10,810 bases of DNA, from IMG/VR virus record IMGVR_UViG_2917886563_000002; one strand, 5' to 3'. Source of the stretch: a virus. Its lineage: Duplodnaviria; Heunggongvirae; Uroviricota; Caudoviricetes. The translations under genes and the position numbers were made by a program. Position 1 is the stretch's first letter. Each line of letters begins with the position of its first letter. Shown here piece by piece: positions 1 to 10,810 of the stretch. The notes beneath the pieces are model-generated. The model made no database searches and was not told the DNA's origin. It saw only the letters and a program-made list of their open reading frames with translations.

Positions 1-470
<470 letters not shown>

Positions 471-1838: not shown

Positions 1839-1860
1839 TAGACAAGAGAAGGAGAAAACT

Positions 1861-2028
1861 ATGAGCGAAACTAAGAAACCAATTCCGCGCACTTACCTAC
1901 ACGTTGACCCTGAAATCTTCAAGGTTTTATTTGCTGAAGCCAAGAAAAGGCAAATTATGGTCAGTGATTTGATGTTAGAAATCATTACTGAAGCAGCAGA
2001 GAACATCAAACAAAAAAAGGGTAAGTGA
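1861..2028 (+). CDS. Small DNA-binding protein, ribbon-helix-helix-like (55 aa)
   Basis: ATG at 1861 with GAAGGAGA SD 5 nt upstream (the track's 1807 start lacks an SD). MSETKKPIPRTYLHVDPEIFKVLFAEAKKRQIMVSDLMLEIITEAAENIKQKKGK shows a polar/hydrophobic alternating strand (RTYLHV) followed by two helices, the RHH pattern. Confidence 0.6.
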   Translation: MSETKKPIPRTYLHVDPEIFKVLFAEAKKRQIMVSDLMLEIITEAAENIKQKKGK

Positions 2029-2079
2029 TCCTCATTCACTTTAGTAGCGCATTAAGCGTGATTTATAAGGAGATTTTTA

Positions 2080-2769
2080 ATGATTAATCAACTAACTTTT
2101 ACAAAACACTATGACACGTTTGATAATGTATCAAAGATTTATTCTGATAAATTCCCTCAAGGAAAAGATTTAGATCTATTACATATTGTGCTTTATTTTC
2201 GATTCCTTAGTTATCAGGAAAACAACCTTAATTGTTATGAAAGTCACGAAACATTAGCTAAGATTTTTAAGTCTTCAGCGTCAACAATTAAACGTAAGAT
2301 AAACGATCTTAAAGAGATGGGATTATTAGAAACATCCCCACATCCTGATCCGTATATTTCATCTTTGATTTACAATGCTCTCCCTCTCACAGATGCACAT
2401 ATTACTCCCCCAGGAGAATCATCACTCTCTGATCTTTCTGAGGCAGAAGAAGCACAGGAACAACCTAAAGGCCATAAACAGCCTTCTTTTGATGCTCTTG
2501 ATGATTGGGATACGCCTTTACCCTGGGAGATGGAAGAAACACCTGTTTCATCAAGTGAAAAGGTAGCTAATGATAATGAGGAGGATGTGTTAAAGAATTT
2601 TGCCTCTCTTATCATCCAGGAGAAACACACAAGAACAGGAGGAGCATCATTTATTGAGTTTGCAAATTCACTAGCTTGTAGATACGGGCTAAAACGACCA
2701 AATGGTATTGAGGCATATTTTGCTAAGAAACATCCCAAAGTATATGAAGACTTTGATATTCCATTTTAA
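2080..2769 (+). CDS. Hypothetical protein with N-terminal winged-HTH-like domain, acidic Pro-rich linker and C-terminal domain (229 aa)
   Basis: SD AAGGAG 7 nt upstream; N-terminus ...LHIVLYFRFLSYQENNLNCYESHETLAKIFKSSASTIKRKINDLKEMGLLE has the look of a wHTH of phage/plasmid replication or regulatory proteins. Confidence 0.8.
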   Translation: MINQLTFTKHYDTFDNVSKIYSDKFPQGKDLDLLHIVLYFRFLSYQENNLNCYESHETLAKIFKSSASTIKRKINDLKEMGLLETSPHPDPYISSLIYNALPLTDAHITPPGESSLSDLSEAEEAQEQPKGHKQPSFDALDDWDTPLPWEMEETPVSSSEKVANDNEEDVLKNFASLIIQEKHTRTGGASFIEFANSLACRYGLKRPNGIEAYFAKKHPKVYEDFDIPF

Positions 2770-3360: not shown

Positions 3361-3600
3361 GTGCCTTGTGGAGATGAATTTAACGCCTTACAAGAAATCT
3401 TATCTTCAACACCTGGCGTATTCTGGAAACCCAGGAAAAGAAAAGAGTATATCGTTGATAGCTCTGATTTACGCAAATACCAGATTTTAGGATTTGAAGA
3501 TTATAATCACTACGTTGGTTATCTCGCTACCAATGGCCTAAATAATTTAGTTCCAGAATTCCAGATTTTAGATAATGCTGATCACTATGGAGACTTTTAA
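3361..3600 (+). CDS. Hypothetical protein fragment; this frame is open from 3172 with no ATG and is probably the downstream part of a gene starting at 3101
   Basis: Track ORF starts at GTG 3361 with no SD; the same frame is stop-free back to 3172 and overlaps the 3101-3247 ORF across an A-run at 3194-3206. Confidence 0.35.
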   Translation: MPCGDEFNALQEILSSTPGVFWKPRKRKEYIVDSSDLRKYQILGFEDYNHYVGYLATNGLNNLVPEFQILDNADHYGDF

Positions 3601-3969: not shown

Positions 3970-3998
3970 TTGACATTTCATATATTGTATGTTAATAT
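3970..3998 (+). promoter_or_regulatory. Sigma70-type promoter candidate (TTGACA, 17-bp spacer, TGtTAATAT)
   Basis: ttgaca at 3970-3975; taatat at 3993-3998 preceded by tg at 3990-3991. Confidence 0.5.
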
Positions 3999-4132
3999 AA
4001 TTATATAGGGGTGATTATTTTTCCTTTATTGGTTCGATATTAAAAATTCTTCTTGTCGTTAAAGGGGAGTAAAATCTCCGCTCCCCGCTTCTCCTCCTTA
4101 AGTAATACTGTGTCATACCTCTTTTTTCCTTT

Positions 4133-4162
4133 GTTATGCATACATCTTGGAGTGTGCATAAC
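4133..4162. repeat. Inverted repeat GTTATGCA ... TGCATAAC (operator-like), with a third GTTATGCA copy at 4211-4218
   Basis: gttatgca at 4133-4140, tgcataac at 4155-4162, gttatgca at 4211-4218; adjacent palindrome CAACTTaaAAGTTG at 4217-4230. Confidence 0.6.
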
Positions 4163-4176
4163 ATAGGGTAATTACA

Positions 4177-4207
4177 AAGGCGGCTTTAAATGCTGCCTTT
4201 TATTTTG
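4177..4207 (+). terminator. Stem-loop followed by T-rich run (intrinsic terminator or attenuator candidate)
   Basis: AAGGCGGC (4177-4184) pairs with GCTGCCTT (4192-4199) with one G-T wobble, loop tttaaat, then ttattttg. Confidence 0.45.
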
Positions 4208-4268: not shown

Positions 4269-4481
4269 ATGTTGTTCTTAAATGATAAAGAGCAAATCAT
4301 CAAGTATAAAGATGAAATGCTGCGAATTACTCCACAAATTACCGAAATGGTAGCTAAATACGCTGGGTGTTCTGTCGAGGAAGTAGAAAGATGTGTTGAA
4401 AAATATTTTTCTCCTTCTTCTCCGTCTACACCTTCCCTTAATGAATTAATCAAATTAAAAGCTAAGGAGATTACTAAATGA
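4269..4481 (+). CDS. Small acidic hypothetical protein (70 aa)
   Basis: Track ORF; weak SD (AAGG about 10 nt upstream); its stop overlaps the next start (ATGA at 4478-4481), suggesting translational coupling. Confidence 0.55.
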   Translation: MLFLNDKEQIIKYKDEMLRITPQITEMVAKYAGCSVEEVERCVEKYFSPSSPSTPSLNELIKLKAKEITK

Positions 4482-4840
4482 TTATTGATTTAGACACTCT
4501 TTTTCCAGTTCGAAAGACTTTCACAGATATTGTAAGTTACTGTACTGATCCGTTTGCTTCTGTAGAAAGCAAGGTTTTTGCTTCTCTTCCTGCTGATGTT
4601 GAATGCGGAGACTTGATCACCAGCACGGGCGCTAAATATGAATCAGGAGATGATATCTATGTTGTTATGAGTGAATTTGTAACGGCAGGAGAAAACAAGC
4701 CTGTAGATGTGCTACGTAGCAATGCTGGCCTTGTGTGCATTAAAGCTGATGCGCTGAATGCTGTAAGTGAAGCAGCAAAAACAGCATTAATTAAAAAAGG
4801 CTTCCAGCTTGAAGGCTTTAACACGGTTTTCACTTCTTAA
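4478..4840 (+). CDS. Hypothetical protein (120 aa)
   Basis: SD AAGGAGA at 4463-4469; overlapping stop-start with the upstream gene; no family recognised. Confidence 0.7.
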   Translation: MIIDLDTLFPVRKTFTDIVSYCTDPFASVESKVFASLPADVECGDLITSTGAKYESGDDIYVVMSEFVTAGENKPVDVLRSNAGLVCIKADALNAVSEAAKTALIKKGFQLEGFNTVFTS

Positions 4841-4858: not shown

Positions 4859-5887
4859 ATGATTCTAGGTAATGATTACGTTGATTTAGCTCCGCTTTTC
4901 CAGACACACAGCACGCGTAACTTTCTGCTCTCTACCCTCGACTTCACTGATCCGGTGGGCGTTAGTTCTCATAAAGTAGCTGTTTCCCAGCTTGTCGAAA
5001 GCAACGAATCTCTCTTTAACAAAGAGACAAGCCGTTTTAGTTCTGAACACAATGTTACTAAGCGAGAACAAGGTAAAGAATGGCTGATTGAAATCCCGTA
5101 TTTTCTTCGTGAGGATGTGATCCGTCCTTCTGATGTTCAAGGCAAGCGTAAGCCTGGCACTGATTTTCAGGAAACACTTACTGATATCTATGCTGACTAT
5201 GTTGCTAAACACCACGTAGCGTATCAGCGTACAAAAGAGAGCGTGTTGGCGGCTTCTTTGTTCTCTGGCAAAACTTACACGCCTAAAACTGACGATGTGT
5301 TAATTGAGTGGGGCAAGCTGTTTAACGTATCAGCTATGAAAGCCACTGTTAACGCCTCCAGCACTGACACCACGAAGATTTTTAAAGAATTTGATCAGAT
5401 TGCTACTGACATTATCGAAAAAGCACAAAGCCAGGCGGCTGCTGTAGAGCGTATTGTTGTTTTCTGTAAGCCGGAAGCCTTCTCTGCAATTCGATTCTCT
5501 GCTGGTATGGCAAACGCATTCCAGTATGTAAGCCCACTGGAAGAGGGGAACGTTGTGTATCAGCGTCGTGACCTGCTACCAGGAGTGACAGCGTTCACTA
5601 TTCCAGGAACTAACATTGATGTTGTTAAACTGGTAGATCCGCTACACCTGGCACATATGACCGCAGACGCTGTAGCTGTGCCTAAATTCGCTAAAGGCTC
5701 TAACGTATATCAGAACATTTACGGGGCTGCTTCCAGCACTTTTGAACTGATTAATGCCGCTCCTGCTGAGGTGTATAGCTATAGCTATGAATCTTCTCGT
5801 GGTGATGCTGTTAACGTTGTTACAGAGAATAGCCAGATGGTGGTAAACCACGGCGTTGGCTTCTCCGTTCAAATCACTGTTAAATAA
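4859..5887 (+). CDS. Hypothetical protein (342 aa); candidate structural (capsid-like) protein, unverified
   Basis: SD AAGGA upstream; long ORF with protein-like composition and no signal peptide; followed by the strongest terminator in the window; paired with a 120-aa upstream gene. Confidence 0.8.
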   Translation: MILGNDYVDLAPLFQTHSTRNFLLSTLDFTDPVGVSSHKVAVSQLVESNESLFNKETSRFSSEHNVTKREQGKEWLIEIPYFLREDVIRPSDVQGKRKPGTDFQETLTDIYADYVAKHHVAYQRTKESVLAASLFSGKTYTPKTDDVLIEWGKLFNVSAMKATVNASSTDTTKIFKEFDQIATDIIEKAQSQAAAVERIVVFCKPEAFSAIRFSAGMANAFQYVSPLEEGNVVYQRRDLLPGVTAFTIPGTNIDVVKLVDPLHLAHMTADAVAVPKFAKGSNVYQNIYGAASSTFELINAAPAEVYSYSYESSRGDAVNVVTENSQMVVNHGVGFSVQITVK

Positions 5888-5905
5888 TATTTTAACGTGT
5901 AATAG

Positions 5906-5945
5906 AGGCGTGGCGTGTATTCACGCTTCGCCTTTTTTTATTTAT
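5906..5945 (+). terminator. Rho-independent terminator
   Basis: AGGCGTGGCGTG (5906-5917), loop tatt, CACGCTTCGCCT (5922-5933), then ttttttatttatttttt. Confidence 0.75.
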
Positions 5946-5973: not shown

Positions 5974-6177
5974 ATGGAAGTGATTTTGAAATCAAAAAAT
6001 GGTGTACACGTACATTTAGATGCTAATGATTCTAGAGGCTTGTTAAATCTGAAATATCTATGTTCTCTTTTAGATGTTCCCTATGAAGGCGTAAAAGCCC
6101 GTATGTTCAGATTAAACGAGAGTATTGATCAGGCTCTACACCATTTCTTAAGCAAAGAAGGTGGTAAAAATGATTAA
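5974..6177 (+). CDS. Small hypothetical protein (67 aa)
   Basis: SD GAGGTGA 7 nt upstream of ATG 5974; stop 6 nt before the SD of the next gene. Confidence 0.6.
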   Translation: MEVILKSKNGVHVHLDANDSRGLLNLKYLCSLLDVPYEGVKARMFRLNESIDQALHHFLSKEGGKND

Positions 6178-6191
6178 TAAGGGGATTTTAA

Positions 6192-8024
6192 ATGTTAGAA
6201 ATTAACACTTCCAAGATTAAAAATACAGTAACATTTACTGTAGATAAAGACAGCTTGAAAAAAGCGAAAGACTCTATTACAGGCTTAAAGGAATTCGCAG
6301 AGAACATCAAGCCAGCTAAATTAAGATTTGATAGTGTCACTAAAGGCTATAAGAAAGCACAAAGCGAAGTAGACAAGATTGCTCAACAGAAAGCTAAAAC
6401 AGAAAAGCAAAATCAAAGAGCACAAGCTGCCGCAGCAAGAGCACAGGCAAGGCAACAGCAACAAATAGCAGCACGTAAGGAGAAGGCAAACTTAAAACTG
6501 TTAGACGTTGGATCAAGCATTAGTGCATTGCACCGCCTCTCTGTAGCGGAACAATACAAAGCTATTGCACAGGCTAGAGAGATAGCGAAACAATATGAGC
6601 AAGGGGCTATCTCGCTTGCACGTATGAATAGCCAGATGAAACGCTTACAACAGCAACAACGTAAGATTAATGGCAATAGAAAAACTCAATTAGCCCCCGT
6701 TAAGGGAGGAGGATCAGGGAATGCCGCCACTATGGGCGCTCTGTTATTTGGAGGCGCTACGGCTGCTGCTGGCGTGATGGCTGTTAGTAAAACCTCTGAA
6801 TTTATGGCTAACAGCTTTGCGAATGCTGAAACACAAGGCGAGCTAATTCAACGTGCAAGGCTTGGCGGTGTAGACGTTAACCAGATGTATAATATTACAG
6901 AATGGGCCTATAGAAACGGGATCGACTCTATGATGGGTGATCAAGGGGCTAGGAAATACCTGGATCAGATGAAAGATGTTAGGGAACGTGCCGCAAAATC
7001 CTATAGTGAAGCTGAATTAGTGAAAGATAAGAAAACAGGAAAATCTGAATGGAAAGGCGGTGATAACGCTATTAATGAACTTCTAAACATCGGTGTTATT
7101 AACAAAAGCGACCTTAAAAAATTTGCTGATAATCCAGCCGGATTAATTTCTAAGGCTGTTAATGGAATGATGAAAAAAGGGTTTTCAGACTCCCAAATTG
7201 GACAACGTTTAGAAGACCTGGGCGATGATTTGATGCTTACGTCAAAATATTGGCAACGTTCCGTTAAAGATGTACAAGAAAGCATTAACCAGCAAAAAGC
7301 CGCCGGACAATGGCTAACAGAAACACAGCAAGACTCTATTGTTAAATTCAGAGAACTAAACAGACAGCTTTCACAGCTTTCTGATGCAAGACAAGTAGCA
7401 TTCGTAGACGGCTTTATGAAATCTCTTGATCCAAAAGTAACGGAAGAGTTTATGAAAAACCTTTCTAATCTCACTCCGTATTTTACGAAGCTGGGAGAAG
7501 CTACAGGAAGTCTCTTTGAAGCCATTATGAAGATTGTAAACTGGTTTAATCGTAATGATGATAAGACAGATGCTATTCAGAAAAATATGGGTGATGCACC
7601 GCCACTATCTAACGATGGAATGAAACAGAATCTTTCTAACCTCGTTCCTGACCAATATAAAGGCGCTGGCACTGCAACAACTACACCTGATAATAGTCGT
7701 TCTCTCTTTAACACGATTAAGGGATTGCTTTTTGATGATAATTCTTCTGTGTCAGATGTAAAAATGTCAGTCAATGAAGCACCGATAACCAATCTCAAAC
7801 AGGGTGCTTTAAATAATCTTGCAATGACAACTCCGGCTTATAATTTATCTCCTGTGTTTAATCTGAATCCAACGTTTGAAGTGGTAACAGAGGTTCCGCT
7901 TACTATTAATTCTGACACGTCCAGATTAAGTGATTATGTGGATTTTACAGCGAGAGCAAGTCGGGATATCTTCTTGAAATCATTAACATTAACCAGCTTA
8001 TCAGGACAATCTAACGGCGGGTAA
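6192..8024 (+). CDS. Large hypothetical protein (610 aa): Gln/Ala-rich coiled-coil-like N-region, Gly/Ala hydrophobic segment, Asn/Ser/Thr-rich C-terminus; tape-measure-like or scaffold-like, unverified
   Basis: SD AAGGGGA upstream; segments ...KTEKQNQRAQAAAARAQARQQQQIAARKEKANLK... and ...GGGSGNAATMGALLFGGATAAAGVMAVS...; no signal peptide. Confidence 0.8.
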   Translation: MLEINTSKIKNTVTFTVDKDSLKKAKDSITGLKEFAENIKPAKLRFDSVTKGYKKAQSEVDKIAQQKAKTEKQNQRAQAAAARAQARQQQQIAARKEKANLKLLDVGSSISALHRLSVAEQYKAIAQAREIAKQYEQGAISLARMNSQMKRLQQQQRKINGNRKTQLAPVKGGGSGNAATMGALLFGGATAAAGVMAVSKTSEFMANSFANAETQGELIQRARLGGVDVNQMYNITEWAYRNGIDSMMGDQGARKYLDQMKDVRERAAKSYSEAELVKDKKTGKSEWKGGDNAINELLNIGVINKSDLKKFADNPAGLISKAVNGMMKKGFSDSQIGQRLEDLGDDLMLTSKYWQRSVKDVQESINQQKAAGQWLTETQQDSIVKFRELNRQLSQLSDARQVAFVDGFMKSLDPKVTEEFMKNLSNLTPYFTKLGEATGSLFEAIMKIVNWFNRNDDKTDAIQKNMGDAPPLSNDGMKQNLSNLVPDQYKGAGTATTTPDNSRSLFNTIKGLLFDDNSSVSDVKMSVNEAPITNLKQGALNNLAMTTPAYNLSPVFNLNPTFEVVTEVPLTINSDTSRLSDYVDFTARASRDIFLKSLTLTSLSGQSNGG

Positions 8025-8057
8025 TTCCCGCCATAACATTACAAGGAAATTATTATT

Positions 8058-8768
8058 ATGGCGACGGCGGGAATTTTAACCATACGTGCAGCAAATACTC
8101 CAGAACAACACGTTCAGGCTGTTTACAAAGCAGAACAAGATATAAACTCTACAAAAAACGAAAATAGCAAAGCTAATAAAACAAAAGGAGAAAATGGATT
8201 TGCTATTGTCACCAGTGGGCTGGCATCTTCTGTAAGTGACGTTTATGAAAATTATATGGCGTTATCCTTTGACAGTGTTGACGATGTGAACGTGAGACGT
8301 TCGGCAGATGTCACAAGCTATCCTGTAGAAAATGGAGCTAATGTATCGGATCACGTTCAAGTTAAGAATAATAAGTTTGCTCTTAAAGGGCGTATCTCTG
8401 AAACACCGATTAAAAGCGATCCTGGCTTGTTAAAGAGTGCAGGGGTGAACGGGAACAGAAGATCATTAGCTATCGACTACCTGAATCAGATTATGGACAG
8501 TAGACAGCCTTTTCTTCTTGTTACAGAAAATAAAACTTTTGAGAACGTTGTTTTAACAGGCATCGAATACACAGAAGAGGCAAGCGAATCTCTGGTATTT
8601 GATTTGGAATTTGAGCAAATCAGATTAGTTTCTTATGGCACTGTAAACACTGTAGCTATCAAAACACAGCCATCTAAGAACATCGGGGCTAATATGAAAA
8701 AACGTGTTAACACTGAAAAAACAAGTGAAGGTGAAGACACTATTACTCCTGCCTTTAAGCAGGAATAG
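8058..8768 (+). CDS. Hypothetical protein (236 aa); possible virion or tail-associated protein, unverified
   Basis: SD AAGGA 10 nt upstream; immediately follows the 610-aa gene; a stem-loop follows the stop. Confidence 0.75.
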   Translation: MATAGILTIRAANTPEQHVQAVYKAEQDINSTKNENSKANKTKGENGFAIVTSGLASSVSDVYENYMALSFDSVDDVNVRRSADVTSYPVENGANVSDHVQVKNNKFALKGRISETPIKSDPGLLKSAGVNGNRRSLAIDYLNQIMDSRQPFLLVTENKTFENVVLTGIEYTEEASESLVFDLEFEQIRLVSYGTVNTVAIKTQPSKNIGANMKKRVNTEKTSEGEDTITPAFKQE

Positions 8769-8809
8769 CCGTAAACGCCTCTAAAACGCTCTGTAACGAT
8801 GTAATTATA

Positions 8810-8842
8810 AAAGAGGCTACCAATCTATGTTGAAGCCTCTTT
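8810..8842. terminator. Stem-loop between convergent genes (bidirectional terminator candidate)
   Basis: AAAGAGGCT (8810-8818) and AGCCTCTTT (8834-8842), 15-nt loop; T/A-rich flanks on both strands; lies between the 8058-8768 gene and the minus-strand recombinase. Confidence 0.4.
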
Positions 8843-8849
8843 ATTGCGT

Positions 8850-9848
8850 CTATGGCGTTGTTTTACGCCTTAAATTTGATTTTTTATTGATTGATAAGCC
8901 TTTCTCTATTTCAGGGTAGCGTAGAAGCTCAATATATTTTTTAAGCTCTACTGGAGAAGCTGCATTCTTGCTATATGTGCGGAATGTCTCTGTATTGCCG
9001 CGTGTATGGCCCAGGAGAAGGGCGATCCTGTCTTCTGGAATTTGATTTCGATCAAGAAGCTGTGCTACTCCGTGTCTCAGAGAATGAAACACCTTCCTTT
9101 CTGTTCCCTTTTCCCCTAAAGCCTTTCGTTTAGCTCTTGTAAATCTCTGCGTGTGCCACGTGGAACGTTTACCATCAGCACGCTCTGTAATGCTGGCGTG
9201 ATAGAACAAAAAGCCATTGTGAGGCTTTTCACGAAGAGATAACACCAACGGAGTGATAAGGCTATGTACAGGCACAAGACGTGCCGCAGCTTTCGTTTTT
9301 CCCTGTGTGATTTCAAAACACAGCACACCTTCGATCTCTTTCACATCGTCTATTGTGAGACTTGCTATCTCATTGATCCGCATACCTGTATATAAACCGA
9401 TAAGACACAAAGCCGTCATTTCTTTGTTTTCTGCTGAATTACCGGAAAATACTTGCAACACCTGCAATAGCTCTTTGTTAGAAAATGCCTCATAGCTCTC
9501 TCTACTTTGTGCCACATCAAGCCTATGCCCTCGCCAGGGGGAGAGCGCCCTTTCTGGCGCATCGTGGTAACGTGATGAAGCTAACTCCCATAGCTGGGCC
9601 ATTGGGCTGATATAATTTGCAATTGATTGTTGTGAAAGGGTTTTTTGCATGCGTTCTATCCAGCCTGTAACAGTGGTGCGGCTCACATCTTGCAATGCAA
9701 TATCAGGCTTTTTACGGTAGGAGAGAAACATCTCTACCGCTTTTCTTGCCTTAGCTAAAGTGGCTGGCTTCTTCTTCGTGCTGTTAATTGTCAGGTAGAT
9801 TTCAAGAATTTTAAGCAATGACGGACACGAAGACGCTGTATCTTGCAT
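8850..9848 (-). CDS. Tyrosine site-specific recombinase (integrase), 332 aa
   Basis: Catalytic-domain signature in order: Arg in ...LYTGMRINEIASL..., H-x-x-R in ...FHSLRHGVAQLL..., ...LLGHTRG..., and Tyr in ...TFRTYSK...; N-terminal region ...LEIYLTINSTKKKPATLAKARKAVEMFLSY... resembles a core-binding domain. Confidence 0.9.
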   Translation of the reverse strand: MQDTASSCPSLLKILEIYLTINSTKKKPATLAKARKAVEMFLSYRKKPDIALQDVSRTTVTGWIERMQKTLSQQSIANYISPMAQLWELASSRYHDAPERALSPWRGHRLDVAQSRESYEAFSNKELLQVLQVFSGNSAENKEMTALCLIGLYTGMRINEIASLTIDDVKEIEGVLCFEITQGKTKAAARLVPVHSLITPLVLSLREKPHNGFLFYHASITERADGKRSTWHTQRFTRAKRKALGEKGTERKVFHSLRHGVAQLLDRNQIPEDRIALLLGHTRGNTETFRTYSKNAASPVELKKYIELLRYPEIEKGLSINKKSNLRRKTTP

Positions 9849-9925
9849 TCTGGTAGCTGTTTTGGCGTATTTAGCCTTACTTCGTAACAGTTCCAGCGTG
9901 TTCTCTATTGTGCTGTTTACAGGAG

Positions 9926-10810
9926 TGATCTTGACCCGCTATCTCCGGACCGCTTTTGTATCTTAAGTTAACGATGCCCGCTGCCGCCGGTATTCCCTCG
10001 GAGAGTAATATCCCAGCGCGCTGTGCGGGTGGTTTTCATTGTAATGCGTGAACGCTGCTGCAAGGTTTTGCAGGGCTGTTCTCACATCCGGTTTTGGCAT
10101 GAACGCGATATAGTCTTCTTTCATCGTCTTCACGAACCGTTCGGCCATGCCATTACTCTGCGGACTGCTCACCGCTGTTGTACAGGGTTCAAGATTCAGC
10201 TCTCTGGCGAACCTCCGCGTTTCATGCGCAGTATACGCTGAACCGTTATCCGTCAACCACTGCACTGGTGTGTCCGGCAACCTGTCGCCGAAGCGCTTTT
10301 CCACCGACCTCAGCATCACATCCTGTACGGTCGAACTGTCGTAGCCTCCCGTGCTCGCTGCCCAGTCTATGGCCTCTCTGTCGCAGCAGTCCAGCGCGAA
10401 CGTCACCCGCAGTTTTTCACCGTTGTCGCAGCCGAACTCGAAGCCGTCTGAACACCAGCGCATATTGCTTTCTGCCACCGCGATTTTTCCCTTGTGTTCA
10501 CGCTTCGGTCGCTCTGGTTTGTCATGCAACAACAACAGGTTATGCTCGCTCATTATCCTGTAAAGTCGTTTGGCGTTCACCGGTGGCTCTCCCTCAGTGC
10601 GACGTTGCTTGCGCAGGATGCCCCACACGCGTCGATAACCATAACTCGGCATATCGCTGATGATATCGAGGATATCCGTCAGTATTTCAGCGTCTGCTTC
10701 GTCATTACGCCGGTTACAGCGCCTGTCCTGCCAGTCGGCAGAACGGTTAACTCGCAGTGACAGCTGCGCACGCGACACGCCCATGGTGCGGCTGACCAGG
10801 GCTATTCCCC
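9926..10810 (-). mobile_element. IS3-family insertion sequence, IS2-like, partial (OrfA side runs off the right window edge)
   Basis: Minus-strand end reads ...GGCGGCAGCGGGCATCGTTAACTTAAGATACAAAAGCGGTCCGGAGATAGCGGGTCAAGATCA, the same pattern as the IS2 right end as recalled; G+C rises at 9926; encodes an IS2 OrfB-like transposase. Confidence 0.88.
9963..10784 (-). CDS. IS3-family (IS2 group) transposase OrfB, DDE catalytic domain
   Basis: ...[13 protein letters not shown]...RWCSDGFEF...[13 protein letters not shown]...[11 protein letters not shown]...[11 protein letters not shown]...[12 protein letters not shown]; D, D and E motif residues present; frame continues upstream past 10784 toward the window edge. 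Confidence 0.92.

Follow-up and report, generated by a model that had tools for sequence, protein, structure and literature searches.

A contractile-tail tube-initiator homologue encoded in a probable satellite-type island linked to phi92-like phages

The stretch of DNA considered here is the IMG/VR record IMGVR_UViG_2917886563_000002, a sequence of 10,810 nucleotides (nt) assigned to the Caudoviricetes and referred to below as the window, and the subject is the gene at positions 8058-8768, which encodes a protein of 236 residues. This protein is almost certainly a homologue of the tube initiator found in contractile-tail phages, and it probably belongs to a satellite-type island that is linked to phages related to phi92. 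What lies at the locus is described below, followed by the island that surrounds the gene, the sequence that the island shares with phages and the interpretations that this allows.

The gene and its protein product

The gene and the features that frame it are as follows.

8058-8768, plus strand: tube initiator (Dit-like) gene, 236 residues, ATG start, based on the open reading frame (ORF) list, PF21821, PDB, Foldseek and the ratio of non-synonymous to synonymous substitution (dN/dS)
8043-8047, plus strand: Shine-Dalgarno-like AAGGA, 10 nt 5' of the ATG of the tube-initiator gene, read from the sequence
6192-8024, plus strand: tape-measure protein homologue, 610 residues (PHROG 16051, 7e-53; BLASTP to phi92 gp134, 2e-34)
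8798-8850, no strand assigned: hairpin between the convergent tube-initiator and integrase genes, core stem 8810-8818 / 8834-8842
8850-9848, minus strand: tyrosine integrase (PF00589), N-terminally truncated, a 332-residue ORF compared with 425 residues in APEC O1

The ORF list confirms that the 236-residue frame sits directly 3' of the 610-residue gene, from whose TAA stop (8022-8024) it is separated by a spacer of 33 nt. No terminator-like site was found between 8024 and 8058, so the tape-measure and tube-initiator genes are likely to be co-transcribed; on the opposite strand of 8058-8768 the ORF list contains no overlapping frame of at least 50 residues. A convergent terminator and an integrase had been placed directly downstream by an earlier note made from the sequence alone, and both are present. 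The hairpin has an RNA folding energy of -26.4 kcal/mol (z = -3.85), a stability equalled by none of 200 shuffled sequences, and the integrase gene adjoins it. The protein has 184 database homologues at E ≤ 1e-5, and the frame is a real gene, far beyond what a chance ORF would be.

In contractile-tail phages a Dit-like protein with the tube fold, named after the distal tail protein (Dit), forms a hexameric ring. The ring rests on the trimeric hub, encircles the C-terminus of the tape-measure trimer and templates the first ring of the tube protein. The Pfam family PF21821 (Dit_like, 'Dit-like phage tail protein') matches the 236-residue protein with an E value of 6.9e-29 and 101 bits, compared with a gathering cut-off of 24.2, and the match covers residues 71-198, corresponding to model positions 1-126 of 127. 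Tail families were also matched in a search against PHROGs. Among sequences of known structure, the strongest match is to chain 21vq_N, Phi92_gp135 (E 8.6e-79 over residues 11-219), with 62% identity over residues 11-215/219. Weaker matches in the same PDB sequence search are to the tube initiator of PhiTE (9cuy_K, 2.4e-12) and to gp17, the tube initiator of Pam3 (7yfz_a, 4.5e-7), and these proteins (9cuy K/L and Pam3 gp17) are 23-24% identical to the window protein. In phi92, gp135 is a hexameric tube initiator that is seated on the trimeric hub gp137, with the C-terminus of the tape measure gp134 inside the baseplate (PMC13450770). By analogy, the 236-residue protein is predicted to form a hexameric ring on a hub and to nucleate the polymerisation of the tube.

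The fold was modelled with AlphaFold2 from 26 homologues and compared with the PDB using Foldseek, with a fold library of entries to April 2026 in which the phi92 chain was not among the returned matches. The strong matches are exclusively inner-baseplate and tube proteins of contractile-tail phages and their relatives, led by PhiTE 9cuy_K (2e-12) and including Pam3, Bas63, XM1, E217, Pa193, Milano, pyocin R2 and diffocin; the top 12 are all phage baseplate entries with a probability of 1.00 each. A tube-protein-like beta-sandwich core is thereby supported in a model of moderate quality. Disorder in the arms of the model keeps the template modelling (TM) scores to the PhiTE and Pam3 tube initiators modest, at 0.34-0.47. 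The earlier note had tentatively suggested a distal tail protein following a tape-measure gene and had called for structure prediction and fold comparison. PF21821, the relationship to phi92 gp135 and the tape-measure homology of the 610-residue gene bear out a Dit-like virion tail protein in that position, and the fold comparison returned baseplate and tail-tube proteins as its strong matches, with no fold or family unrelated to virion proteins emerging. The siphovirus framework of the suggestion did not survive, since the closest relatives are contractile-tail tube initiators (phi92 gp135 at 62% identity, PhiTE, Pam3, Bas63, XM1 and E217).

The island around the gene

Beyond the tape-measure and integrase genes, the window contains the following features.

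159-470, minus strand: OrfA-like ORF, from its translation
2080-2769, plus strand: HTH_36 / DUF6945-type protein, 229 residues, putative island replication initiator (Pfam/PHROG matches)
4269-4840, plus strand: two small conserved ORFs of 70 and 120 residues, 5' of the capsid gene, with ORFs of similar size at the same positions in related islands
4859-5887, plus strand: major capsid protein homologue, 342 residues, HK97-type (PF03864, E 1.7e-13)
5905-5929, plus strand: intrinsic-terminator-like hairpin and T-run after the capsid gene, dividing the capsid operon from the tail-initiation operon
5974-6177, plus strand: ORF of 67 residues directly 5' of the tape-measure gene, with an ORF of 62-67 residues at the same place in all islands examined
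9963-10784, minus strand: OrfB-like transposase ORF, from its translation

When compared by BLASTP with phi92 gp134 (659 residues), the tape measure is 56% identical over residues 1-66, of which the first 23 are the same, and about 26% identical over residues 86-610. Its N-terminal 25 or so residues and its C-terminal 30 or so, ending in SGQS.GG, are gp134-like, and both termini are conserved with the phage protein in Klebsiella and Enterobacter islands as well. The best match to the capsid homologue in a cultured phage, found by tblastn, reaches at most about 26% identity. The capsid, tape-measure and tube-initiator homologues are the only virion genes recognised among the ten largest island ORFs with Pfam and PHROG, and on a similar set with NCBIfam; terminase, portal, protease, tube, sheath, hub and fibre genes were not recognised among those ten. 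NCBIfam holds no family for the tube initiator, the tape measure, the capsid protein or the small ORFs, and the 67- and 120-residue ORFs have no similarity to phi92 gp133 or to the cement protein gp123. The genes for plug, hub, spike and sheath initiator, which are present in the phage loci, are absent downstream of the tube initiator in the island. PADLOC returned no defence model for the structural or small ORFs and only weak HTH matches for the replication-like protein, whose own PHROG and Pfam matches are all below or near threshold. Rfam gave nothing at E ≤ 0.1 across the whole window.

Two stretches resemble promoters. A near-consensus sigma-70 promoter (TTGACA-17-TAATAT, with TG) lies in the 3970-4200 region, 5' of the capsid operon, and is followed by a leader of about 180 nt that is poor in ORFs, ends in a terminator-like hairpin (4176-4200) with a T-run and has no Rfam match. 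A leader under antitermination control is one possibility here, and a small RNA another. Positions 1500-1540, 5' of the first small ORFs (1662-2028) of the early region, contain a strong sigma-70-like promoter (TTGACA, 17-nt spacer, TGCAATAAT).

The same arrangement recurs elsewhere. A replication gene, small ORFs, the capsid gene, the tape measure, the tube initiator and a convergent integrase follow one another in Klebsiella, in Enterobacter, in a second Escherichia coli lineage at another site and in the lineage with mosaic alleles, with products of about 66, 120, 343 (capsid), 65, 615 (tape measure) and 225 (Dit-like) residues ahead of the integrase; the set occupies about 10-12 kb across genera and chromosomal sites. 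In the Enterobacter version a 482-residue DEAD-like protein stands in place of the HTH_36-type replication protein. Enterobacter islands also carry a possible accessory gene, for an EAL-domain protein, between the tube initiator and the integrase (L006 10712-11383), and at the Klebsiella locus a Dam-type methylase gene (L003 1353-2021), possibly another accessory gene, lies about 1.2 kb 5' of the first island-type ORF.

The copy in APEC O1 (L001) is intact and adjoins tRNA-Thr, with the vat island next to it. A direct repeat of the 3' end of tRNA-Thr, matching at 23 of 25 nt, marks the two ends of this copy, with attL at 3558-3582 and attR at 15803-15827, 12,245 bp apart; the integrase has 425 residues. 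L001 5849-5931, 5' of the gene block, contains three 22-bp iterons (TAGGTCAYWGTGAGCTAGGGGG) with AT-rich 31-nt repeats around them, and this region is the probable replication origin of the island.

The window aligns to L001 5939-15460, with the alignment starting at window position 538 and ending at 9923, and on both sides an insertion sequence (IS) has replaced the end of the island. Positions 1-540, including an ORF that we take to belong to the IS3 family (IS911-like), stand where the intact island has its left 2.4 kb or so with attL, a candidate packaging-site copy and the iterons. Positions 9923-10810, with what is presumably the IS2 orfB, stand in place of the right end, comprising the N-terminus of the integrase and attR. 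The att repeat, the iterons and the copy of the phage repeat boundary were sought in the window and are absent; the capsid, tape-measure and tube-initiator ORFs are all intact.

The gene is widespread. By megablast the 9.3-kb stretch was detected in 739 of the 5426 complete E. coli genomes searched, in 284 cases at a coverage of at least 80%, and the best match is only 95.8% identical. DNA of the tube-initiator gene itself occurs in 568 of the 5426, and 295 of these belong to the window lineage at 90-95% nucleotide identity. The names attached to database homologues include E. albertii, Citrobacter, Kluyvera, Raoultella, Kosakonia, Cronobacter, Lelliottia, Pluralibacter and Pseudescherichia among others, and a scan of genome contigs with exact-pattern seeds returned 7 loci. 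Matches in IMG/VR are prophage-type predictions from isolate genomes together with contigs of phi92-like phages, and these matches provide no evidence of the island in virions. Compared with five other E. coli copies, dN/dS is 0.07-0.12 for the tube initiator (with dS about 0.2), 0.09-0.13 for the capsid gene and 0.10-0.19 for the tape measure. A ratio near 0.1 on copies that have diverged to this extent signifies strong purifying selection, which a decaying remnant would not show, and together with a minimal gene set that is conserved across genera it points to a satellite-type element rather than a broken prophage. The earlier note's description of a truncated or minimal module is thus apt as far as the minimal set goes; as a statement of decay it fails, given the conservation of the set and the selection acting upon it.

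Sequence shared with phi92-like phages and mosaic alleles

The phage homologues of the tube initiator that exceed 50% identity are all from the Stephanstirmvirinae, with values of 62% for Justusliebigvirus, 56% for Phapecoctavirus and 52% for phiWec179-like phages; rV5-like and other phages come next at 29% or less. Several INPHARED records (MG065639-MG065690, 'Campylobacter phage A150, C3, B15' etc.) carry phi92-like, phAPEC8-like or rV5-like tube-initiator genes. In these Campylobacter jejuni-labelled records the genes are identical to those of E. coli phages; the Campylobacter host labels look doubtful.

Two segments of the window are much closer to phage DNA than their surroundings.

6193-6279, plus strand: 87-nt patch, 89.7% identical to the first 87 nt of phi92 gp134 in a gene that is otherwise diverged (local blastn)
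1849-2090, plus strand: 242-bp segment, 99.2% identical to Justusliebigvirus phage muut (81027-81268), by sequence match

The second of these covers an ORF of 55 residues (muut_153) and the start of the next gene, which in muut encodes a protein with two HTH_36 domains and a T5orf172/MUG113 domain and in the island is the HTH_36 replication-like gene. Identity of 99.2% over 242 bp implies a very recent exchange between island and phage, possibly through a mobile cassette. The phi92-like phages, among which muut is classified in Justusliebigvirus, have genomes of about 148 kb and are virulent. In the 91 kb or so of the phi92 record that was inspected no integrase gene is annotated, although a resolvase-family invertase, gp053, is. 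When 13 island ORFs were compared by tblastn with phi92 1-91316 (91317-148612 lying outside the search), the capsid, tape-measure and tube-initiator genes were the only ones to match. In GC content the island (38.7-39.0%) is similar to phi92 (36.7-38.0%) and unlike the host flank (54.9%).

Intact E. coli islands also carry, in inverted orientation, 44 of the 46 nt of phi92 318-363 (L001 4690-4735), a segment lying across the inner end of the left terminal repeat (343 bp as annotated) of the phage. An exact 31-mer is common to phi92 and nine E. coli island loci, and the 46-bp segment also matches the ends of other Stephanstirmvirinae genome records. From its position it is a candidate copy of the helper packaging site.

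The tube initiator of the window and phi92 gp135 are alike in length (both 236 residues), in their position directly after the tape measure, in the tube-like core and in a related C-terminal T-x-T-x-x-[F/L] motif. They differ in that the window gene belongs to a chromosomal island with an integrase rather than to a 148-kb phage, and is not followed by the genes for plug, hub, spike and sheath initiator. The window protein, moreover, has an N-terminal extension of 10 residues and a shorter C-terminal arm that ends right after the motif. A tube-protein core with N- and C-terminal arms is also the plan of the PhiTE and Pam3 tube initiators. The N- and C-terminal insertions of the PhiTE protein 'pervade much of the baseplate', where they contact neighbouring tube initiators, the sheath, the sheath initiator, the spacer, wedge 2 and the hub (PMC11972413).

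A block-wise comparison of the window protein with phage and island versions reveals a mosaic. The extension at residues 1-10 (MATAGILTIR) is of island type and absent from the phage proteins, residues 11-35 are nearly identical to phi92 gp135, and residues 36-80 and 101-180 are of a sequence type common to the second E. coli island lineage, with residues 81-100 between them conserved in every version compared. The tube-like core spans approximately residues 70 to 198. The C-terminal arm is of island type and finishes in DTITPAFKQE; an end of the form D-[TV]-[VI]-T-x-x-F-[KN]-[KQ] is found in 98 of 120 homologues. The proteins of verified phage genomes have a related T-G-T-x-x-L motif, which follows a longer linker and has 8-10 further residues behind it. 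When the island motif was sought in other phage baseplate proteins the only match was an internal one, in the sheath-initiator gene of one phage contig, and this was judged to be due to chance.

Recombinant alleles provide a further view of the same division. In allele P0010 (L026 7743-8456), nt 31-581 are 94.6-94.9% identical to the genes of phi92-like phages, whilst the island type is retained at nt 1-30 and nt 582-714 and also in the tape measure and the capsid gene. Allele P0005 has a phage-like segment at about residues 36-80 inside a protein of the window type. Together with the phage-like segments of the window, these alleles show that islands and phi92-like phages have exchanged DNA repeatedly. 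The phage-derived core that one island allele carries lends indirect support to the predicted ring on the hub and the predicted nucleation of the tube. So the tube-like core, which would touch the tube, the hub and the tape measure, appears to be exchangeable with that of the helper, and the N- and C-terminal arms appear to be class-specific. Mosaic alleles between phage and island thus represent a natural experiment on which parts of a tube initiator are interchangeable.

Interpretation, alternatives and meaning for phage satellites

The sequence evidence makes it most likely that the island belongs to the satellites, with virulent myophages of the phi92-like group (Stephanstirmvirinae) as its helpers. 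With limited confidence it may be expected, on balance, that the protein and helper parts are combined in chimeric tails. Upon infection by a phi92-like helper, the tape measure and tube initiator of the island would replace gp134 and gp135 on the helper hub, and the trimer of the one and the hexamer of the other would nucleate the tube and sheath that the helper supplies. Tails formed in this way, whether those of island-containing particles or all of them, would then carry a satellite-encoded central initiation complex. For the island the possible gain may lie in securing or redirecting tail nucleation, in changing the tape measure that is injected or in sabotaging helper tails; both the incorporation into tails and the gain are inferred here. 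The broadest form of the proposal is put forward tentatively. It is that these islands, unlike any described satellite, might take over helper tail assembly at the nucleation step. They would do so with a tape measure of their own and a tube initiator whose core is compatible with the helper and whose baseplate-contacting arms are altered, and would bring along a capsid protein of their own as well as the copied helper terminal-repeat boundary.

Several observations weigh against this proposal. Tape-measure length sets tail length, a ruler principle established for lambda gpH and others, and the island tape measure is about 7% shorter than gp134; the tail would be only slightly shorter, tail length is therefore unlikely to be the point. 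There is no evident need for the island to bring its own tape measure and tube initiator. The capsid homologue is only 22% identical to the phi92 major capsid protein gp124 by BLASTP, and in the island a scaffold was not recognised, nor a portal or protease. The packaging-site reading rests on position at an annotated repeat boundary rather than on a mapped terminase site, and the 46-bp segment was not found in the Klebsiella, Enterobacter and second E. coli lineages. The AlphaFold2 model is of moderate quality, with a mean predicted local distance difference test score of 55, core blocks at 70-82 and arms below 50. The window copy itself is immobilised by its IS insertions and cannot move; the att sites, the iterons and the candidate packaging-site copy are gone and the integrase is incomplete. 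No published description of the element was found, although one beyond the literature searched is possible. Finally, the recombinant alleles may have kept island-type ends simply because crossover there had no homologous sequence to act on; that the C-terminal motif is conserved across genera is a better argument for constraint than these retained ends.

The alternative that has to be taken most seriously, although it is unlikely, is that the tube initiator and the tape measure act chiefly as dominant-negative proteins. A helper-like core would enter the hub complex and altered arms would derail the assembly of baseplate and sheath, so that infectious helper progeny would fall and the island-bearing population, rather than transfer of the island, would gain. 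Such an interference role is in keeping with a helper-like, interchangeable core combined with class-specific arms, and with the contacts that the arms of PhiTE make with sheath, sheath initiator, spacer, wedge and hub (PMC11972413). Satellites and prophages are documented to block tail assembly by means of Tai systems (PMC11364771), to which an inhibitory role of the island proteins would be analogous in outcome. The immobilised window copy has kept its three structural ORFs intact, which would suit a function that has no need of mobility, although this may only mean that the IS insertions are recent. Set against interference are the absence of a PADLOC defence match and the integrase, att sites, iterons, capsid gene and helper repeat-boundary copy, which point to packaging and transfer and not to defence alone; in known satellites, interference and self-transfer do not exclude each other.

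That the gene is instead a relic without current function, left by a degraded phi92-like or other myovirus prophage, is very improbable. The window copy is indeed cut and flanked by IS elements, part of the integrase and the att sites have been lost and only three of many virion genes are present. Phages related to phi92, however, are of about 148 kb and have no integrase annotated in the part inspected, and the capsid gene is not derived from phi92 (22% identity). The same set of about 10-12 kb occurs in the same order in different genera and sites, att repeats are defined and the three structural genes are under strong purifying selection at a dS of about 0.2; the conserved set, the att repeats and the selection largely refute a degraded prophage. 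Still less credible is a siphovirus Dit from a minimal non-contractile tail module, which the position directly after the tape-measure gene, the family name 'Dit-like' and weak fold matches to the tail-tip proteins of lambda and T1 (E about 3e-3) would favour. A siphovirus Dit shares the tube-like fold only distantly and has no significant sequence match, no siphovirus Dit family was matched in Pfam and the strong sequence and fold matches are all to contractile-tail tube initiators, with the nearest phages encoding sheath, sheath initiator, hub and wedge proteins. This possibility was rejected, the lambda and T1 tip matches being far weaker than those to myophages.

If the island is considered as a satellite of phi92-like phages, it can be set beside several known systems. 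The gene set of phage-inducible chromosomal islands of the capsid-forming type (cf-PICIs) consists of capsid, portal, protease, head-tail adaptors and small terminase, and of this capsid and packaging set only a capsid homologue was recognised in the island with Pfam and PHROG. The cf-PICIs resemble the island in being small integrative elements of Enterobacteriaceae that encode a major capsid protein themselves and rely on a helper for the remaining parts of the virion (discussed in PMC10085698). A preprint has them encoding all proteins for small capsids and packaging; they have no tail proteins, whole tails being stolen from the helper. The island, by comparison, has a capsid gene alone on the head side, adds two tail-initiation genes and apparently depends on a virulent myophage. 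The PLE and PICMI elements are likewise chromosomal and exploit strictly lytic phages, and PICMI is also very small. Neither is reported to encode a capsid protein, a tape measure or a tube initiator, PICMI being described as without capsid-remodelling genes, and no sequence relationship of the island to PLE or PICMI was detected in the searches made here. Tai systems are, like the role proposed for the island, carried by satellites and prophages and act at tail assembly; they are described as immune systems that block this process, whereas the island protein is a structural tail homologue (PMC11364771). The island lies outside the four SatelliteFinder families, and the SatelliteFinder paper makes no mention of tape measure, baseplate, tail protein or tail genes. 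The satellites described in the literature searched make use of unaltered helper tails or obstruct these by means of small inhibitors, and none was found to encode components of tail initiation.

Taken alone, the protein is ordinary, a new member of a structurally solved family with diverged arms, and it is its location that matters. If the proposal is true, a satellite with its own tape measure and tube initiator would show phage assembly being attacked at a new point. A common family would also be added to the known satellites, since DNA of the gene is present in about 10% of complete E. coli genomes. The phages that this family would target, those related to phi92, are under development for therapy against encapsulated E. 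coli.

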